The notes beneath the pieces are model-generated. The model was not told the DNA's origin. It was given only the letters and a program-made list of their open reading frames with translations, and did not search any database. Below are positions 4,428-36,668 of a stretch of 37,793 nt of DNA, piece by piece. Source of the DNA: a virus; UHGV virus genome UHGV-0272092. The stretch is one strand, 5' to 3'. Both the position numbers and the translations under genes were made by a program. Each line of letters starts with the position of its first letter. Positions within the stretch are counted from its first letter, which is position 1.

Positions 4428-4818
4428 CGTCTTTTCTCCCCGGAATTAACTCGCGTGGATTATCGGAACGGTGATAGAGCCATATACCAATACGCACAGC
4501 GACAATTGCTGACACGAATGCGCCTGCAGAGAAAACAATCCCTTTTTCAAAAGAGTCCTGCGTGATGGTAGGGATCAGGCTGGCTATGCCGATAAGAATT
4601 GATGCTGCTGGTTTGTAAAAGAGAAGGCCGCAAAGAAAGCTGAGCATCGACAGGAGCACCCGGCGACGGATGGGGTACTCTACTGCAGAGGTAACAAAAA
4701 TTACCGCCCCAGCCAAAGCCCCTAAAGCAACCTCCGGAGGGGCACCTGCAATAACCGCAGCAAGAGAACTAAAACTAAGCAACTGATTTAATTGCTCACT
4801 TGTTACTTGAGCAGACAT
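4414..4818 (-). CDS. holin-like membrane protein (3-4 TM segments, charged C-terminal tail)
   Basis: Several hydrophobic helices and C-terminal [19 protein letters not shown]; first gene of the lysis cassette. Confidence 0.5.
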   Translation of the reverse strand: MSAQVTSEQLNQLLSFSSLAAVIAGAPPEVALGALAGAVIFVTSAVEYPIRRRVLLSMLSFLCGLLFYKPAASILIGIASLIPTITQDSFEKGIVFSAGAFVSAIVAVRIGIWLYHRSDNPRELIPGRKDDGNA

Positions 4819-4878: not shown

Positions 4879-4889
4879 AACCATATATG
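4879..4889 (-). promoter_or_regulatory. conserved element AACCATATATG (late-promoter-like), about 60 bp upstream of the lysis cassette
   Basis: One mismatch to AACCACATATG at 8309 and 24915, each at a similar distance upstream of a minus-strand operon start. Confidence 0.4.
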
Positions 4890-8308: not shown

Positions 8309-8319
8309 AACCACATATG
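8309..8319 (-). promoter_or_regulatory. conserved element AACCACATATG upstream of the tailspike gene
   Basis: Identical 11-mer at 24915-24925; preceded by ATTACC-N5 in both copies. Confidence 0.45.
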
Positions 8320-24914: not shown

Positions 24915-24925
24915 AACCACATATG
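24915..24925 (-). promoter_or_regulatory. conserved element AACCACATATG upstream of the head operon
   Basis: Identical to 8309-8319; preceded by ATTACC-N5. Confidence 0.45.
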
Positions 24926-26003: not shown

Positions 26004-27479
26004 TTAAGCATAGGGATCGTAATCTGTGATGGCCTTGCCTTGCTGGTTCTGCTGACCGGGAATTCGCAGACGCTTCGACACAGGGAACGCAAACGTCAGC
26101 AGTAGCGCATCGCCTTTACCAGGAGAACGCCCAAGTCGCTCTTTGATATCTTCCTTCGGTTCGATAACGATTTTACCGTCCACTCGAACTTTGTACTCTG
26201 CTGCCGACAGGTCGTCCGCTGTTTCCTGGTCATCCAGCATGCCGCCCAGCCTCAGCCATGTCTTGCATGAATTGAACATCTCCCCACGCTTGTTGAGCAT
26301 CTGCGGGTCAGTAGACGCGCCACCGAACGGAACAAGTTGCCATGTACGACCCCATCCGTCACCGATTGACTTCAGACCGGTTCCGTAACCGAAGTCGATG
26401 AACACCGCGTCAGCCTGATACTGGTCTTCAAAGTCAGCGATACGCTTCGCCATAATCAGATCGTCGGTAGTCTTGTTGCCAGTCCACAGCACCTTACTGT
26501 GTAGCCCCTGCCGCAGGTATATCACCGCGTCATCAACGCCTGAATATGCCGGGTCAACACCGATTATCACCGGAGCATGCGCCACCTGCGCAGCGGTTAC
26601 CACCCGTTTCATTGCCTCATCAGTAAGACCGGTAGGGATAAACTGCAATTCAGATGCATCAGGGAATATGCCGCGCACACGGATTTTAACGAAGTCGCTG
26701 TCTTCCCCGTAGTCATCAACCCATTTCTGCAACTGCTGTTTGTTAGTGCCTTCCACCGTTCGGCTGTCAATCTGCGCAGTTTTCCAGCGGTGTTTATATT
26801 TGCGGAAACATTCGCGGAAACGTCCGGTATTACGCGTCGGGTTTCCGAACGCCACCCAGATAATCTCAGTGTCTTCGTCCGTTAGTGCACCCTCGGCAAC
26901 TTCCCACACCAGATCCGCAATGTTCGACGCTTCATCGAATACCACGATGATGCGTTTGCGCTCGTTGTGTAGTCCGGCGAATGCCTCAGTGTTGTGCTCA
27001 GACCAGGGGATTGCGTCAGCTCGCCACCGCTTGTCGTGTCCAGGATCATTGCTGTACATCGCGGTAGCGGTACAGGTAAACCAGTCTTTCGTGATAGCAA
27101 GGTTCGACCACTTGATAATTTCCGGCCAGGTCTTCGTTCGTAGCTGGTTGTCGGTGTTGGCGGTCACCACGACCTTACAATCCTCGCAAGTGGACATGCC
27201 CCAGTTGATCAGCATTGAGATGAATGCGGATTTACCAATACCGTGACCCGAAGCACGTGCCAGCATAAGCGGCTGATAGCGCGTCTCTGGATTCTGCAGG
27301 TGATCACGTATCTCTCGGAACGCATCAGCCTGCCACTGACGTGGGCCGGTAGCATGTGCCAGTTCAGTCCCCTCTTCCCCCCACGGGAACGCATAGAGGG
27401 CATAGCCAAGCGGATCGTGAGTGAACCCTGCAATATCCTCGATCAACTGCTCTTCAGGAGATAACGCTGTATCTGTCAC
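26004..27479 (-). CDS. terminase large subunit (491 aa)
   Basis: Size, position downstream of the small subunit with 4-nt overlap; N-terminal ATPase-like and C-terminal nuclease-like composition. Confidence 0.8.
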   Translation of the reverse strand: MTDTALSPEEQLIEDIAGFTHDPLGYALYAFPWGEEGTELAHATGPRQWQADAFREIRDHLQNPETRYQPLMLARASGHGIGKSAFISMLINWGMSTCEDCKVVVTANTDNQLRTKTWPEIIKWSNLAITKDWFTCTATAMYSNDPGHDKRWRADAIPWSEHNTEAFAGLHNERKRIIVVFDEASNIADLVWEVAEGALTDEDTEIIWVAFGNPTRNTGRFRECFRKYKHRWKTAQIDSRTVEGTNKQQLQKWVDDYGEDSDFVKIRVRGIFPDASELQFIPTGLTDEAMKRVVTAAQVAHAPVIIGVDPAYSGVDDAVIYLRQGLHSKVLWTGNKTTDDLIMAKRIADFEDQYQADAVFIDFGYGTGLKSIGDGWGRTWQLVPFGGASTDPQMLNKRGEMFNSCKTWLRLGGMLDDQETADDLSAAEYKVRVDGKIVIEPKEDIKERLGRSPGKGDALLLTFAFPVSKRLRIPGQQNQQGKAITDYDPYA

Positions 27480-28072
27480 TGATTACCATCCTGACGTTCT
27501 TTGAGTCGCTTCCTGGCTGCTGCTATGCGATCAGCAATTGTCACATTCACATTAACATCCAGACGTTCTTTGAACGCGTTGACATCAACATGCTTACCAA
27601 TCAGCTCAAGGTTCTTCACCTTGTCAGGCCATTTAATTTTTTTGAGGATTGTCTCTATCGAATCCTCGTTCATGTTCATGATGGTCGATGACAGATCAAA
27701 GCCACTAAGCGTAGTGCGCCAGATTTTCGGCCACTCACGGATTGGTTTAAGGCTCCCATCGTCGTTGAGGATGTCGATCACGTCCATCTGGTCGATCTCC
27801 ACCAGGCGCATGAGAACGTAATCAGCACTGACGCGCATTCGTTTGTTGCGCTCCTCCATCAACTCGGCAATCCGTTTTTGAATGCGTTCATCGCGCATCA
27901 TGACACTGGCTTTAACTGCCGCTGTATTTGGGGAGAATCCTGCGTTAATCGCTGCCTGAGTCTGGTTTTCAGGCGTTTTGATGTATGACTGGCAATAAGC
28001 CTCCTGCATTGCTGTTAGTGGCTTAAATTGCGTTGATTTGCGTTTATAGGTTTTAGGTTCAGCAGGCATCAT
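27476..28072 (-). CDS. terminase small subunit
   Basis: Position; start moved to MMPAEPK (ATG 28072, RBS GGTGG) because the upstream extension to 28150 contains a terminator hairpin and direct repeats. Confidence 0.65.
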   Translation of the reverse strand: MMPAEPKTYKRKSTQFKPLTAMQEAYCQSYIKTPENQTQAAINAGFSPNTAAVKASVMMRDERIQKRIAELMEERNKRMRVSADYVLMRLVEIDQMDVIDILNDDGSLKPIREWPKIWRTTLSGFDLSSTIMNMNEDSIETILKKIKWPDKVKNLELIGKHVDVNAFKERLDVNVNVTIADRIAAARKRLKERQDGNQ

Positions 28073-28081
28073 AACCACCGT

Positions 28082-28111
28082 GGTAATAGTTACCGTTGTG
28101 GTAATAGTACC
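28082..28111 (-). repeat. tandem direct repeat GGTAATAGT(T)ACC x2 directly upstream of the small terminase start
   Basis: GGTAATAGTTACC (28082-28094) and GGTAATAGTACC (28100-28111). Confidence 0.5.
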
Positions 28112-28141
28112 ATGCAAAATAAAGCCGCCATAGTTGGCGGC
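28112..28141 (-). terminator. rho-independent terminator between the accessory early genes and the terminase genes
   Basis: Stem GCCGCCA / TGGCGGC; on the minus strand followed by TTTATTTTG. Confidence 0.6.
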
Positions 28142-28182
28142 AGTATTCAAAACCCATCAAATTCATCATGCATAATCTACTC

Positions 28183-28194
28183 GTGACATGTCAC
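28183..28194. promoter_or_regulatory. 12-bp palindrome GTGACATGTCAC (copy 3 of 3), overlapping the stop of the 28191-28538 gene
   Basis: Exact repeat. Confidence 0.5.
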
Positions 28195-28538
28195 ACTATT
28201 AATTTCGTTTCATGCCAGCCTTTAGTCACCCAGCATTGCGAGTCACCATTACACGGGCATGAATTAACTGGAACTCTCTCGCCGCACTTACCGCAACATT
28301 TTCTGCTGATCGATTTTATACGCCCGCGCACGCGTGCATCATCCTGGCGGATCAGTAACGCGATGTACTCGGCCATTTCATAGGGATCGCGACCAGGGCG
28401 CCGGGCGGCGCAGTTCCGCGCCAGCATTTCCTGCTCCTGCTTATCCAGCACCAGTTCAATTTTGCGCTCACCGGCGGCGGACTGCCGAGCGCGCTGCGCG
28501 GCTTTGCGTTCTGCGGGGGATTTAGCCACGAATCGCAC
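28191..28538 (-). CDS. Cys-rich small protein (about 111-115 aa), candidate late-gene regulator
   Basis: C-terminal Cys cluster CCGKCG...CPCNGDSQC; last gene before the terminase-proximal terminator. Track start is GTG; a second GTG with RBS GGAG is at 28526. Confidence 0.45.
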   Translation of the reverse strand: MRFVAKSPAERKAAQRARQSAAGERKIELVLDKQEQEMLARNCAARRPGRDPYEMAEYIALLIRQDDARVRGRIKSISRKCCGKCGERVPVNSCPCNGDSQCWVTKGWHETKLIV

Positions 28539-29926: not shown

Positions 29927-30418
29927 TCACTCTCCTTTGATGCGAATGCCAGTGGTACTCATTCTCCTGATTTCCCAGAGCACACGAGGAACACCACCGT
30001 TTCCGACCGGATCGCGTTTACTCCGCAGGGCGACGCTTGATTCCGCCCAGCTTTTTCTTGGAGGAAGCTCTTTCACACGAACAAAACCAGCTGCGCGAAG
30101 AGATGCTCCTGATTCATCTGCCCGGGTGTACGTAATACAACGTTGATAACCCATAGCTTTTGCTGCCCGCCAGACAGCACCATAAAGCGCGCTGTTAGCG
30201 TTGCGTTCTCCTGTGGTACATGTGCGATTTACTTCAAGCGTTAATCCATCGTCCAAATGTCGTGCAACAGGTCGACCGGCTGTCGCCACACCTATCAATT
30301 CTCCGGCATCATTTCTCAGACCAATGCTGAATTTATGCCCCACCGGGGGTTTATTGTGTCGGTGATGTCTGGATATAAATGCCTTCGCAACACGAAGAGT
30401 AACCGGTGAAATCTGCAC
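29927..30418 (-). CDS. GNAT-like fold protein (putative N-acyltransferase), about 163 aa
   Basis: Pattern IGVATAGRP ... NANSALYGAVWRAAKAMGY ... ASLRAAGF is consistent with a GNAT-type fold. Start set at GTG 30418 (AAGGAG 7 nt upstream); track start is TTG 30457. Confidence 0.4.
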   Translation of the reverse strand: MQISPVTLRVAKAFISRHHRHNKPPVGHKFSIGLRNDAGELIGVATAGRPVARHLDDGLTLEVNRTCTTGERNANSALYGAVWRAAKAMGYQRCITYTRADESGASLRAAGFVRVKELPPRKSWAESSVALRSKRDPVGNGGVPRVLWEIRRMSTTGIRIKGE

Positions 30419-30420
30419 TC

Positions 30421-31149
30421 TCACTCTCCTTTGATACCAATGTTTACAGTCTGGCAAGCTTCTCTGAGCACCCAGTCAATAGCGTCTTTCCATGCTCCGG
30501 TTTCGACTGACGGATTTTCACGCTTAACCTGTTCATAGAAGCGCACTGCTTTAACCAGTCCTTCCGGTACTACTGGCGATGGCTGTTTAGCTTCTAAATC
30601 AGCAATTCTGTCAACCACGGCATCGACAGCATCTGAAAAGCCGAACCAGTTACTCCACTCCGGTCTGTCCCCGGTTGCTGCAAAGTACATATCAGCTAAA
30701 GCAGACTCAGCATGGTCACGCTCATTGATGAGTTGCTCTTCGCTTTTCTCCAGTTCAGCAATACGATTACTTCCATCCGAGATAACACCTTCGTAATACT
30801 CACGCTGCTCGTTGAGTTTTGATTTTGTCTCCTCAAGCTCAACACGCAGCTTCCCTACCGTTAGCGCAATATCCTCGTTCTCCTGGTCGCGGCGTTTGAT
30901 GTATTGCTGGTTTCTTTCCCGTTCATCCAGCAGTGCAAGCACGGTAGCCGGATTAGCCTTGGCAACAAAATCCCGGACTGGCTTACAATCAATCTCCGCA
31001 ATGGGTTGATACGATGTGTAGCCATGCTGTCTTGTATAACTACCGTGACGAATAACGAAAAAATCACCATTTATTTTTTTAGCCTGCCACTTATCTTCAC
31101 CGGCTTTCTCTGCCGCTTCACGCAGTGCATGATAGTTAATTTTGTTCAC
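30421..31149 (-). CDS. Ead/Ea22-like protein (242 aa)
   Basis: Coiled-coil central region and overall resemblance to Ea22-like early proteins of lambdoid phages, from memory. Confidence 0.45.
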   Translation of the reverse strand: MNKINYHALREAAEKAGEDKWQAKKINGDFFVIRHGSYTRQHGYTSYQPIAEIDCKPVRDFVAKANPATVLALLDERERNQQYIKRRDQENEDIALTVGKLRVELEETKSKLNEQREYYEGVISDGSNRIAELEKSEEQLINERDHAESALADMYFAATGDRPEWSNWFGFSDAVDAVVDRIADLEAKQPSPVVPEGLVKAVRFYEQVKRENPSVETGAWKDAIDWVLREACQTVNIGIKGE

Positions 31150-31812: not shown

Positions 31813-32157
31813 TCAGAACTCTTCGATGTTCCAGCCACCACCTGCTTTCTTTGGTTTAACCGTTACCCCGATGATTCGGAACGGATACTGATCTGCGGCG
31901 ACTTTGGTTTTCACCCTGGCGTCGTCGGTCCAGAAACCTTTCACTTCGTGCAGTTCCATCTCTCCGGTGGCGAGCATCACAGCGAAATCGGGCGTATAGA
32001 ACGTGTTGTCAGCTAACCGCAGCTTGATACCCTCGAATCGATACCAGGCGATTTCCCCTGCACGTTTACGCTGCTCAAGGTGCTGGCAATACGCAGATTC
32101 TGTTTTGTTCATCTGGCCTGTTTTGAGTCGACCAAGAGCCTGTATCTGTTTTCTCAT
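31813..32157 (-). CDS. DUF1064-family protein (putative nuclease-fold protein)
   Basis: 114 aa; resemblance to DUF1064 proteins found next to phage replication genes. Start codon lies 3 nt from an operator-like palindrome. Confidence 0.45.
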   Translation of the reverse strand: MRKQIQALGRLKTGQMNKTESAYCQHLEQRKRAGEIAWYRFEGIKLRLADNTFYTPDFAVMLATGEMELHEVKGFWTDDARVKTKVAADQYPFRIIGVTVKPKKAGGGWNIEEF

Positions 32158-32160
32158 GAT

Positions 32161-32237
32161 TTACCTCTAAGGTAATTGAAAACCATATAAGACACGAAAT
32201 CAATAGAGTTTAGAATATTTTGTTACCTTGTAGGTAA
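32161..32237. promoter_or_regulatory. pair of operator-like palindromes TTACCTCTAAGGTAA (32161-32175) and TTACCTTGTAGGTAA (32223-32237)
   Basis: Two perfect-armed palindromes 62 bp apart between P and the DUF1064 gene. Confidence 0.55.
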
Positions 32238-32274
32238 TTGTTGAGGCGTAAAAAAATGCGCTATCGCGCTGGTA

Positions 32275-34461: not shown

Positions 34462-34523
34462 TCACCCATAAGGTAACAAAAATCAAGGATAGTTACCTAT
34501 GAGGTGCATTTACCTGTTGGGTA
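34462..34523. promoter_or_regulatory. OR-like operator cluster with three sites: TCACCCATAAGGTAA (34462-34476), TTACCTATGAGGTGC (34493-34507), TTACCTGTTGGGTAA (34509-34523)
   Basis: Three 15-bp sites in the divergent intergenic region between the Cro-like and repressor genes. Confidence 0.65.
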
Positions 34524-34579
34524 ATATTGCTTTAAATTGAATCATCTACTGATTCATATATGAGGCGATTTTCCAGAAA

Positions 34580-35164
34580 ATGAAAAGTATCCAGGACGTC
34601 CGCAGGCAAAATCTCAACGACTTGATCGACCGTGAATTCAATGGTGTTCAGACGCGGATGGCAGAAAAACTTGGAACTCAGGCAAATCTGGTAAACCGCT
34701 GGGCTCTTGGCAAGAAGGTTATCGGCGACCAGGTTGCACGAAAAATTGAAGCTGCCGCCAATAAACCCCGTAACTGGCTTGATATTGATCGTTCGCTTTC
34801 TCAGGAGGGTTTTCAGCCTGTCGGCCCGAGCGATATAGGTCAGCTGGCGGCTCACAACCTGGAACGCTGGATGAGCGAAAGCCGCGACCTTTCAACACAG
34901 GGAAAACTTCACCGCGCATCCGGCGTCGCCCAGGTGACAATCAGCCGCCTGTTAAACAATGAGGTCAGCGTTTCCATTTCCACCCTGGAGAATGTTGCAT
35001 CCGCATTCGGGCGTCACGGATATGAACTACTGATTCACCCGCACGACCCTGCGACTATCAACTATGACCGCTCACGCTACGCATTGTTACCCGAAACCGA
35101 GAAAGCAAAGATCGAAAGTTACATTGAATTTGTCATCAACCAGAACGAAAAAAGCAAACAATAA
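34580..35164 (+). CDS. prophage repressor, tandem HTH domains, no S24 peptidase domain
   Basis: Two XRE-type HTH-like segments (TRMAEKLGTQANLVNRWALGKK and ASGVAQVTISRLLNNEVSVS); no Ala-Gly / Ser-Lys autocleavage signature. Confidence 0.65.
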   Translation: MKSIQDVRRQNLNDLIDREFNGVQTRMAEKLGTQANLVNRWALGKKVIGDQVARKIEAAANKPRNWLDIDRSLSQEGFQPVGPSDIGQLAAHNLERWMSESRDLSTQGKLHRASGVAQVTISRLLNNEVSVSISTLENVASAFGRHGYELLIHPHDPATINYDRSRYALLPETEKAKIESYIEFVINQNEKSKQ

Positions 35165-35221: not shown

Positions 35222-35298
35222 TTACCTTACGGGTAATTTTTTTAACTCATATCTATTGACACCAAACCAAATAAGCATAATTATTACCCCAACGGTAA
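35222..35298 (+). promoter_or_regulatory. OL-like region: operators TTACCTTACGGGTAA (35222-35236) and TTACCCCAACGGTAA (35284-35298) flanking a sigma70-like promoter (-35 TTGACA 35256-35261)
   Basis: TTGACA followed 14-16 nt later by CATAAT/ATAATT; the second operator overlaps the start region. Confidence 0.6.
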
Positions 35299-35772: not shown

Positions 35773-36668
35773 TGCGGAACGCTGGAATCATGGATAGAAC
35801 AAAATACATCGGAGGAAGCGATGTTGCAGGGATTCTTGGAATTAGCCCATGGCGCACCCCGCTTGAGGTTTATCTGGATAAGGTCCAGCCACGTGTCAAA
35901 CCAGTAGACCCAAGCAAGCAGAAAGTTTTCACGCGTGGCCAGCGTATGGAGCCATACGTAATAGACCTGCTTTCTGAGGAAACAGGGATGGAAATCGTTC
36001 ATCGCGGAAACCGCTATATCCACCGTGATTACGATTTTATTGCAGCTGAGATCGATGCAGAAGCAGCGTCAGGCGAGAACATTGAGATCAAAACAGTTAG
36101 TCCGTTCAAAGCCAAAGAATGGGGAGAAATCCAGACAGATGCAATTCCTGTGCATTACACGGCCCAGGCCATGCACGGGTTGATGGTTACAAACAAACAG
36201 GTATGCGTTTTCGGTGTGCTTATCGGTGGCGACGACTTCCGAATCTATCGGGTTGAGCGTGATGAAGAAACTATCCAGGCGATCTTAGAAAAAGAAATCG
36301 CTTTCTGGGACCGAGTGAAAAATCTTAACCCGCCGGAAGCTACCAGCGTAAGCGATGTATCGCTGATGTTTGAGAAAGATGCCGGGACAAGTATCGAGGC
36401 TGACGGAAAGGCACTCGCACTATTCAACGATCTACGAGACATGAAATCACGCAGAAAATCACTGGAAGAAGAAATAGCTATATCAGAAGAGAAGCTGAAG
36501 ATGTACATGCAAGAGCACTCAGTCCTGACCCTGGACGGAAAGCCGCTCTGCACATGGAAATCTCAGATCAGCAACAGATTCGACCAGAAGCTATTCCAGT
36601 CAGTACACCCTGAGTTATTCGAAAAATTCAAAACAACAACGACACAACGCGTCTTCAGAATGAAGTAA
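35769..36668 (+). CDS. YqaJ-type recombination exonuclease
   Basis: N-terminal IGGSDVAGILGISPW motif typical of YqaJ/lambda-exo-like nucleases; paired with RecT downstream. Confidence 0.75.
   Translation: MMRNAGIMDRTKYIGGSDVAGILGISPWRTPLEVYLDKVQPRVKPVDPSKQKVFTRGQRMEPYVIDLLSEETGMEIVHRGNRYIHRDYDFIAAEIDAEAASGENIEIKTVSPFKAKEWGEIQTDAIPVHYTAQAMHGLMVTNKQVCVFGVLIGGDDFRIYRVERDEETIQAILEKEIAFWDRVKNLNPPEATSVSDVSLMFEKDAGTSIEADGKALALFNDLRDMKSRRKSLEEEIAISEEKLKMYMQEHSVLTLDGKPLCTWKSQISNRFDQKLFQSVHPELFEKFKTTTTQRVFRMK

Follow-up and report, generated by a model that had tools for sequence, protein, structure and literature searches.

Two copies of one palindrome stand between the replication gene P and the DUF1064 gene that follows it in the viral genome UHGV-0272092 (37,793 nucleotides, the whole of which is called the window here), and they raise the question of which protein reads them and whether it acts on the DNA, on the messenger RNA or on both. 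The original prediction took the palindromes for members of an operator family that bracket the promoter region of the DUF1064 gene, one of them also supplying its Shine-Dalgarno (SD) sequence, so that a bound protein would occlude the initiation of transcription as well as of translation.

Results

Layout of the gap between P and DUF1064

The genes of this region are encoded on the minus strand in the order cro-like gene (34425 to 34195), replication gene with a DnaT domain (33871 to 33023), replication protein P gene (33051 to 32275; Pfam Phage_lambda_P, E 5e-56) and DUF1064 gene (32157 to 31813), with P ending upstream of the cassette described below. Both 15-mers were found where they had been placed, as the exact 15-bp palindromes TTACCTCTAAGGTAA (32161-32175) and TTACCTTGTAGGTAA (32223-32237), the starts of which are 62 bp apart. 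On the minus strand, which is the coding strand for DUF1064, the gap reads GCGC-GATA-GCGC-TTTTTTT, 12 nt, the distal operator TTACCTACAAGGTAA (32237 to 32223, an exact match to the motif defined below), 19 nt, TTGATT, 17 nt, and TTCAAT, whose last T is the start of the proximal operator TTACCTTAGAGGTAA (32175 to 32161). The latter is followed by the three nucleotides atc and then by the ATG (32157-32155), which confirms on this strand that the proximal palindrome ends 3 nt before the start codon of the DUF1064 gene. Within the proximal operator lies the SD motif GAGG (32167-32164), 6 nt upstream of the A of the ATG. The start codon was checked separately and is sound, because it is the earliest possible start within the ORF, the protein is in register with the Pfam DUF1064 profile (residue 18 falls on profile position 19), and the N-terminus MRKQIQALG is kept among relatives.

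The first element of the gap, GCGC-GATA-GCGC followed by seven T (32250..32269, minus strand), ends 12 nt before the distal operator and may be a weak intrinsic terminator behind P. Its stem consists of 4 pairs only, which is below the threshold of the terminator scan, and consequently no call was made; in the phiV10 record the orthologous element is the sole annotated feature of the gap and is described as a putative rho-independent terminator. The epsilon15 gap, too, has a GCGC-N4-GCGC-T7 element upstream of its two sites, and the stem and the T-run are conserved, with a variable loop, in epsilon15, Tyrion, BUCT554 and SPC32H.

The palindromes belong to an operator family

When up to one mismatch is allowed, the window contains 11 copies of the motif TTACC-N5-GGTAA where 0.66 would be expected, and none of 100 shuffled sequences got to 11. 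Eight of the 11 sites are exact matches, and all 11 are intergenic by our reading of the ORF lists. Three operators (34462, 34493 and 34510) make up OR (34462..34524), which separates the cro-like gene from the divergent rep gene, while two others (35222-35236 and 35284-35298, 62 bp apart) form the PL module, or OL (35222..35298, plus strand), just downstream of rep. Because the identical motif forms both OR and OL around rep, the two palindromes of the gap are members of this family, in agreement with the original prediction. Single sites were also found upstream of the gp3-like gene (24967) and of the tail fibre gene (8349), and a pair of sites at 28072 and 28090 (28072..28104, minus strand), 18 bp apart, abuts the terS start codon. 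Ahead of the integrase gene, 43 nt from its start at 2703, stands an operator-like site that differs from the motif in one base (2746-2760), and epsilon15 has an equivalent operator-like site at 26882, likewise 43 nt before the start of int; an action of Rep at int or in the attP region is suggested as well.

That the palindromes are chance occurrences devoid of function has next to no probability: nothing was found in favour of this reading, the count against expectation and the shuffled sequences already refute it, and both the position and the spacing of the sites are conserved across genera.

As regards terS (region 28064-28150, minus strand), the listed start of its ORF is a TTG at 28150, and the likely start is the ATG at 28072 or 28069. 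The proximal operator of the pair, TTACCACGGTGGTTA, overlaps or abuts this likely start codon, with GGTGG as the SD. In the terS equivalent of epsilon15 the sites are at 12 and 30 and the ATG is at 47, the first site being annotated as a repressor site.

Rep and the Cro-like protein as presumed ligands

The presumed ligand of the operators is the CI-like repressor Rep (34580..35164, plus strand), which matches the SPC32H Rep over its full length (PDB 5D50, E 3.5e-42), the two proteins being only roughly half identical. Rep has two HTH-like domains, as noted too in the phiV10 annotation. A Pfam HTH_3 match was obtained in the C-terminal half (residues 106-147), and the N-terminal half gave a faint YdaS-type HTH match only. 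In the summary given by PMC9638917, SPC32H Rep is described as a tetramer on palindromic DNA, in which the DNA-binding pairs come from subunits of different dimers and one tetramer is enough for repression.

Rep homologues at 52-57% identity go with the same TTACC/GGTAA half-sites, and among Rep homologues down to 52% identity no different half-sites, as might mark heteroimmune relatives, were found. When the promoter core was used as the anchor of a pattern scan, 55 cassettes were returned, all with TTACC/GGTAA and none with an alternative palindrome, besides 76 unrelated matches.

The operators of lambdoid phages are shared by CI and Cro. The cro-like gene of the window encodes a 76-aa product that matches a phage transcriptional-repressor family, and this Cro-like protein probably uses the operators too. 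One could go further and assign the sites of the gap a lytic role, with the Cro-like protein turning the middle operon down late in infection and Rep being secondary. We find this unlikely, as nothing in the analysis points to Cro specificity and the sites of epsilon15 are annotated 'repressor, lysogeny'; besides, such a role is compatible with repression by Rep and does not exclude it.

The cassette is conserved and ends at the start codon

Since the window is 97-98% identical in the cassette region to phiV10, TL-2011b and vB_EcoP_ZX5, the phage can be assigned, by sequence, to the epsilon15/phiV10-type temperate podophages of Uetakevirus. Epsilon15 repeats the 62-bp distance with sites at 35907 and 35969 (35969-35983), and there the gene whose ATG follows 3 nt behind the second site is gp43, which encodes a RuvC-type resolvase. 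SPC32H carries the cassette before a DUF1064 gene, with sites at 4534 and 4596. Tyrion, BUCT554, SPC32H and epsilon15, which were retrieved by homology and not by pattern, all have the same cassette.

A pattern scan of IMG/VR for the palindrome cassette gave at least 120 loci and, after the removal of duplicates, 69 unique post-replication cassettes with 30-nt flanks and 59 unique 77-nt cores among the matches listed. As these loci were chosen by the palindrome pattern, the conservation of the operator arms does not count as independent evidence; the spacing, the -35 element, the purine bias described below and the homology-retrieved cases are independent of this selection. Among the matches listed, the operator spacing is 62 bp, with no indels, in all 59 unique cores, the 47-nt stretch between the operators goes down to 38% identity, and the TTGA at -35 is invariant in the 59 relatives. 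The distance from the proximal operator to the ATG, determined in the set of 69 among the matches listed, is 3 nt in 59 cassettes and 5 nt in 10, and the gene that follows is DUF1064, RuvC-like or of a third type. Over all loci, the spacings of neighbouring operators cluster at 17-18, 48, 62-63 and 76 bp, the peak at 62-63 bp being inflated by the way in which the loci were retrieved.

A BLAST search with the gap and the gene together located the boundary of the cassette. The DUF1064 Uetakeviruses match throughout, the RuvC Uetakeviruses (epsilon15, Tyrion, PAT1) match the gap only, up to the ATG, and unrelated DUF1064 phages (Pseudomonas F116 and Vibrio, Erwinia and Burkholderia phages) match the gene only. 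Because the match breaks at the ATG, the cassette is part of the regulatory backbone and not of the gene.

In more distant prophages that bear Rep (52-57% Rep identity, one from Serratia), an 18-bp operator pair takes the place of the 62-bp pair before the first post-replication gene (L203 5642-5674, L204 5285-5317, L205 5206-5238). An operator again stands 3 nt ahead of that gene, and in the proximal site of L205, TTACCAAAGGAGTAA, one arm base is traded for a better SD.

A promoter-like pair with the geometry of PL

Between the two palindromes lies a promoter-like pair of hexamers that is conserved in relatives, in accordance with the claim that the palindromes bracket the promoter region. 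The putative -35 TTGATT (32198..32203, minus strand) comes 19 nt after the distal operator and, following a 17-nt spacer, the putative -10 TTCAAT (32175..32180, minus strand) shares its last T with the first T of the proximal operator. The arrangement is that of PL, where TTACCTTACGGGTAA, 19 nt, TTGACA (35256-35261), 17 nt and AATTAT (35279-35284), the last T of which starts TTACCCCAACGGTAA, follow one another on the plus strand. All offsets of the DUF1064 cassette and of PL are equal (19 nt, the 17-nt spacer, the -10 ending on the operator T, and 62 bp), and a block TCTATTGA around the -35 is common to both. In view of this, the promoter-operator unit of PL and the DUF1064 cassette look like paralogues, the latter having the weaker hexamers.

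The TTGATT-17-TTCAAT pair scores 4/6 and 4/6 for its hexamers. A promoter scan of the coding strand of the gap called no promoter, because the -10 has no A at position 2 (-11), where this base is near-essential; it is above all this lack that weakens the case for a promoter, and the cassette promoter may be weak or activator-dependent. In the 59 unique relatives among the matches listed, the -10 is mostly TTTAAT (29) or TTAAAT (22), and TTCAAT is unique to the window; the middle promoter of the window phage may be even weaker than that of its relatives. The transcription start would be at about 32168, inside the proximal operator.

A poor -10 that escapes the scan, taken together with a terminator stem of merely 4 base pairs, could also be explained by a pure roadblock, in which no promoter exists and Rep bound at the pair of sites halts PR polymerases that read through the leaky terminator. 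We regard this as quite improbable, however, since an invariant TTGA occupies the offset of the PL -35 and the spacings equal those of a clear TTGACA-17-nAnTAT promoter. Moreover, PR is itself repressed in the lysogen, so that a second block would be of little use there. An internal promoter under Rep control is the reading that we retain.

Several other promoter elements were considered and rejected. AAGACA-16-TAGAAT on the plus strand between the two operators (32189-32216), taken as an antisense promoter, occurs at the chance rate (1 against 1.1 expected) and, by reading of the sequences, is not conserved in the epsilon15-type cassettes. A -10 within the operator centre, which would yield a leaderless mRNA, would always end in GG, and a TRTGGTT motif is in the wrong register for an extended -10. 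This motif, as ATRTGGTT and usually within (C)ATATGTGGTT, is present four times on the minus strand of the window (4879-4886, 8309-8316, 24915-24922 and 32181-32188). By our own reading, these copies are on the coding strand in the gaps upstream of the holin/lysis operon, the tail fibre gene, the gp3-like gene and the DUF1064 gene, and in the tail fibre and gp3-like gaps GGTAAT comes next. In epsilon15, where 8 matches to the motif compare with 2.4 expected, it precedes gp3 and gp23. ATRTGGTT may be a late-promoter or activator element.

The Shine-Dalgarno sequence within the proximal operator

The claim that the proximal palindrome supplies the SD sequence was substantiated by its conservation in relatives: among the matches listed, 39 of the 59 unique relatives have an SD match of 4 nt or more at the position of GAGG(T). 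The spacer positions 8-10 of the operator are 95% purine in the proximal operator, as compared with 58-68% in the distal operator and both PL operators, among the matches listed. The variable 5-bp spacer of the operator is filled with purines, which form the SD. The terS pair is the second case of an operator-SD overlap in the window.

The overlap invites the idea that a protein bound to the proximal palindrome stands in the way of both RNA polymerase, on the DNA, and the ribosome, on the mRNA. It is favoured by GAGG lying within the palindrome at a distance of 6 nt from the ATG, and by the overlap being conserved in relatives and present at terS also, but we consider it very improbable. Rep is homologous to 5D50, a helix-turn-helix protein, and helix-turn-helix repressors recognise duplex DNA; the statement that a bound protein would occlude translation initiation is therefore unsupported. 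As RNA, the palindrome would make a hairpin of about -4 kcal/mol only, and an mRNA started about 7 nt beyond the -10 would be without the 5' half of the site. Furthermore, PL has an equal operator geometry with its SD outside the operator, from which it follows that the operator function is independent of the SD. The overlap of SD and operator is best read as economical sequence packing and not as dual control.

Even more improbable is a function of the palindromes as RNA structures, be it as processing or stability hairpins or through sequestration of the SD in read-through transcripts. According to folding prediction, the distal and proximal palindromes can pair in the read-through RNA of the window, and the SD bases are mostly paired in the folded molecule. 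The pattern of variation nevertheless points elsewhere, as invariant arms with a free centre indicate sequence-specific contact with a protein and not base-pair covariation. The stems are of 5-6 bp (about -4 kcal/mol), and the motif also occurs in OR, between divergent genes. We retain the palindromes as sites on DNA.

Gating of the SD at the RNA level was rejected as a candidate: in five phages, the predicted accessibility did not differ consistently between read-through and promoter-initiated RNA, and scrambling of the distal site altered little in the predictions for the same number of phages.

The gene behind the cassette and its operon

The product of the DUF1064 gene (31813..32157, minus strand) is resolvase-like, with matches to Pfam DUF1064 (E 3.4e-07) and to PHROG 190, 'Holliday junction resolvase' (E 6e-43), and a weak match to T7 endonuclease I (E 0.21). 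Among relatives, DUF1064 and RuvC-type genes swap directly after the same cassette, the gene in this place in epsilon15 (L002 35987-36451) being RuvC-type. Because of this swap, the PHROG 190 match and the weak match to T7 endonuclease I, the DUF1064 protein is probably a junction-resolving nuclease.

The operon extends for about 4 kb from DUF1064 and encodes Ea22-like and other proteins, a Mom-like DNA modification protein (29927-30457, minus strand; PHROG 1384, E 9.5e-42) and, as the last one before terS, a transcriptional regulator (28191-28538, minus strand; PHROG 536, E 6e-54) that is a homologue of epsilon15 gp49 and N15 gp46. The gene of the regulator is followed by a hairpin-plus-T-run and then by terS, and its product is a candidate late-gene regulator.

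Discussion

Proposed mechanism

The sites themselves, their membership in the operator family, the cognate repressor gene, the geometry identical to that of PL, the conservation of the cassette and its boundary at the ATG were all observed directly. We consider it likely that the two palindromes are Rep operators which flank and overlap an internal sigma-70-type promoter of the middle operon, and that this promoter is off in the lysogen. The binding of Rep to both sites, the activity of the promoter, its start site and the formation of a loop are what we infer beyond these observations. The internal promoter would restart transcription after the weak terminator behind P and drive the middle operon of about 4 kb, with DUF1064 as its first gene, the Mom-like gene within and the regulator gene last, just before terS. 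In the lysogen, Rep on the distal site, just upstream of the -35, and on the proximal site would exclude RNA polymerase, and on the proximal site it would cover the end of the -10, the start site at about 32168 and the DNA that encodes the SD.

As at PL, one Rep tetramer would probably occupy both sites and hold the promoter within a tight loop. Such bridging by a single tetramer is proposed because 62 bp is about six helical turns and the Rep family is tetrameric, with two DNA-reading heads; the loop, deduced from the spacing, would be very tight at this length. The 5-bp spacer of the operator, not being contacted, would be free to turn purine-rich and in this way to bring the SD inside the operator. 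This allows the cassette to stop exactly at the start codon, and the leader is probably very short, at about 11 nt.

A broader reading, which we put forward only tentatively and hold to be rather less than an even chance, takes the paired operators for a design rule of this group of phages. One Rep tetramer would clamp two palindromes with a spacing of 16-18 bp or of about 62 bp, and in the case of PL and of the middle promoter the clamp may take the form of a six-turn micro-loop around the whole promoter. The proximal operator may double as the ribosome-binding site, with the transcription start inside the operator and the SD at the 5' end of the mRNA, and the SD-bearing cassette may be a portable unit, bounded by the start codon, to which any first gene could be joined.

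Relation to known systems

Operator-family sites outside the immunity region are already known, as they are annotated in epsilon15. Its record (NC_004775) lists 'protein_bind: repressor, lysogeny' at seven sites, of which 35906-35922 is the ortholog of the distal operator. These predicted repressor sites have the same TTACC-N5-GGTAA motif and the same dispersal over terS, gp3, tail fibre, OL and the post-replication gap. However, in the gap the epsilon15 record contains the distal site only, whereas the proximal site (35969-35983), the 62-bp pairing and the PL-like geometry carry no annotation. The flanking genes differ as well, being DnaT-like and RuvC in epsilon15 and P and DUF1064 in the window. 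The Rep/Ant switch of SPC32H (PDB 5D50, 5D4Z) is also close to the system described here, with a full-length Rep homologue and the same cassette before DUF1064. For ZX5, promoters have been predicted, and its repressor and antirepressor have been shown to affect the balance between lysis and lysogeny; the ZX5 paper defines no operators.

The palindromic operators that overlap an early promoter, and the presence of multiple, cooperative sites, resemble OL/PL and OR/PR of lambda. The motif, the repressor fold and the oligomer are different, however, and the window phage puts operators at each operon, whereas lambda is repressed at PL and PR only and relies on N and Q antitermination for the downstream genes. 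Two operators on the same face of DNA that bracket a promoter, together with a tetrameric repressor, are likewise known from lac O1-O3 and gal OE-OI. In contrast to the loops of lac and gal, looping here is deduced from spacing, and 62 bp is at the short end of known loops. In having many repressor sites dispersed outside the immunity region, the window is similar to mycobacteriophage L5 with its gp71 stoperators. The stoperators of L5 are asymmetric and orientation-dependent, lie inside transcription units and block elongation, while the sites of the window are symmetric, perfect palindromes at operon starts and so are not stoperators of the L5 type.

Significance

On the whole, the cassette is an ordinary, well-conserved regulatory unit to which modest new detail has been added, namely the second operator, the PL-like geometry, the fixed 62-bp pairing, the SD made from the operator spacer and the cassette boundary at the start codon. 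For annotation, the gain is a second operator and a promoter for a cassette that is present in many enterobacterial prophages. The exact 62-bp pairing leads to a testable prediction of how the unusual Rep tetramer engages DNA. As the last gene of the operon encodes a probable regulator and lies just upstream of the packaging genes, the cassette promoter may gate the entry into late expression. In epsilon15-like prophages, which are without a lambda-style N/Q cascade, the immunity repressor would silence each lytic operon at its start.
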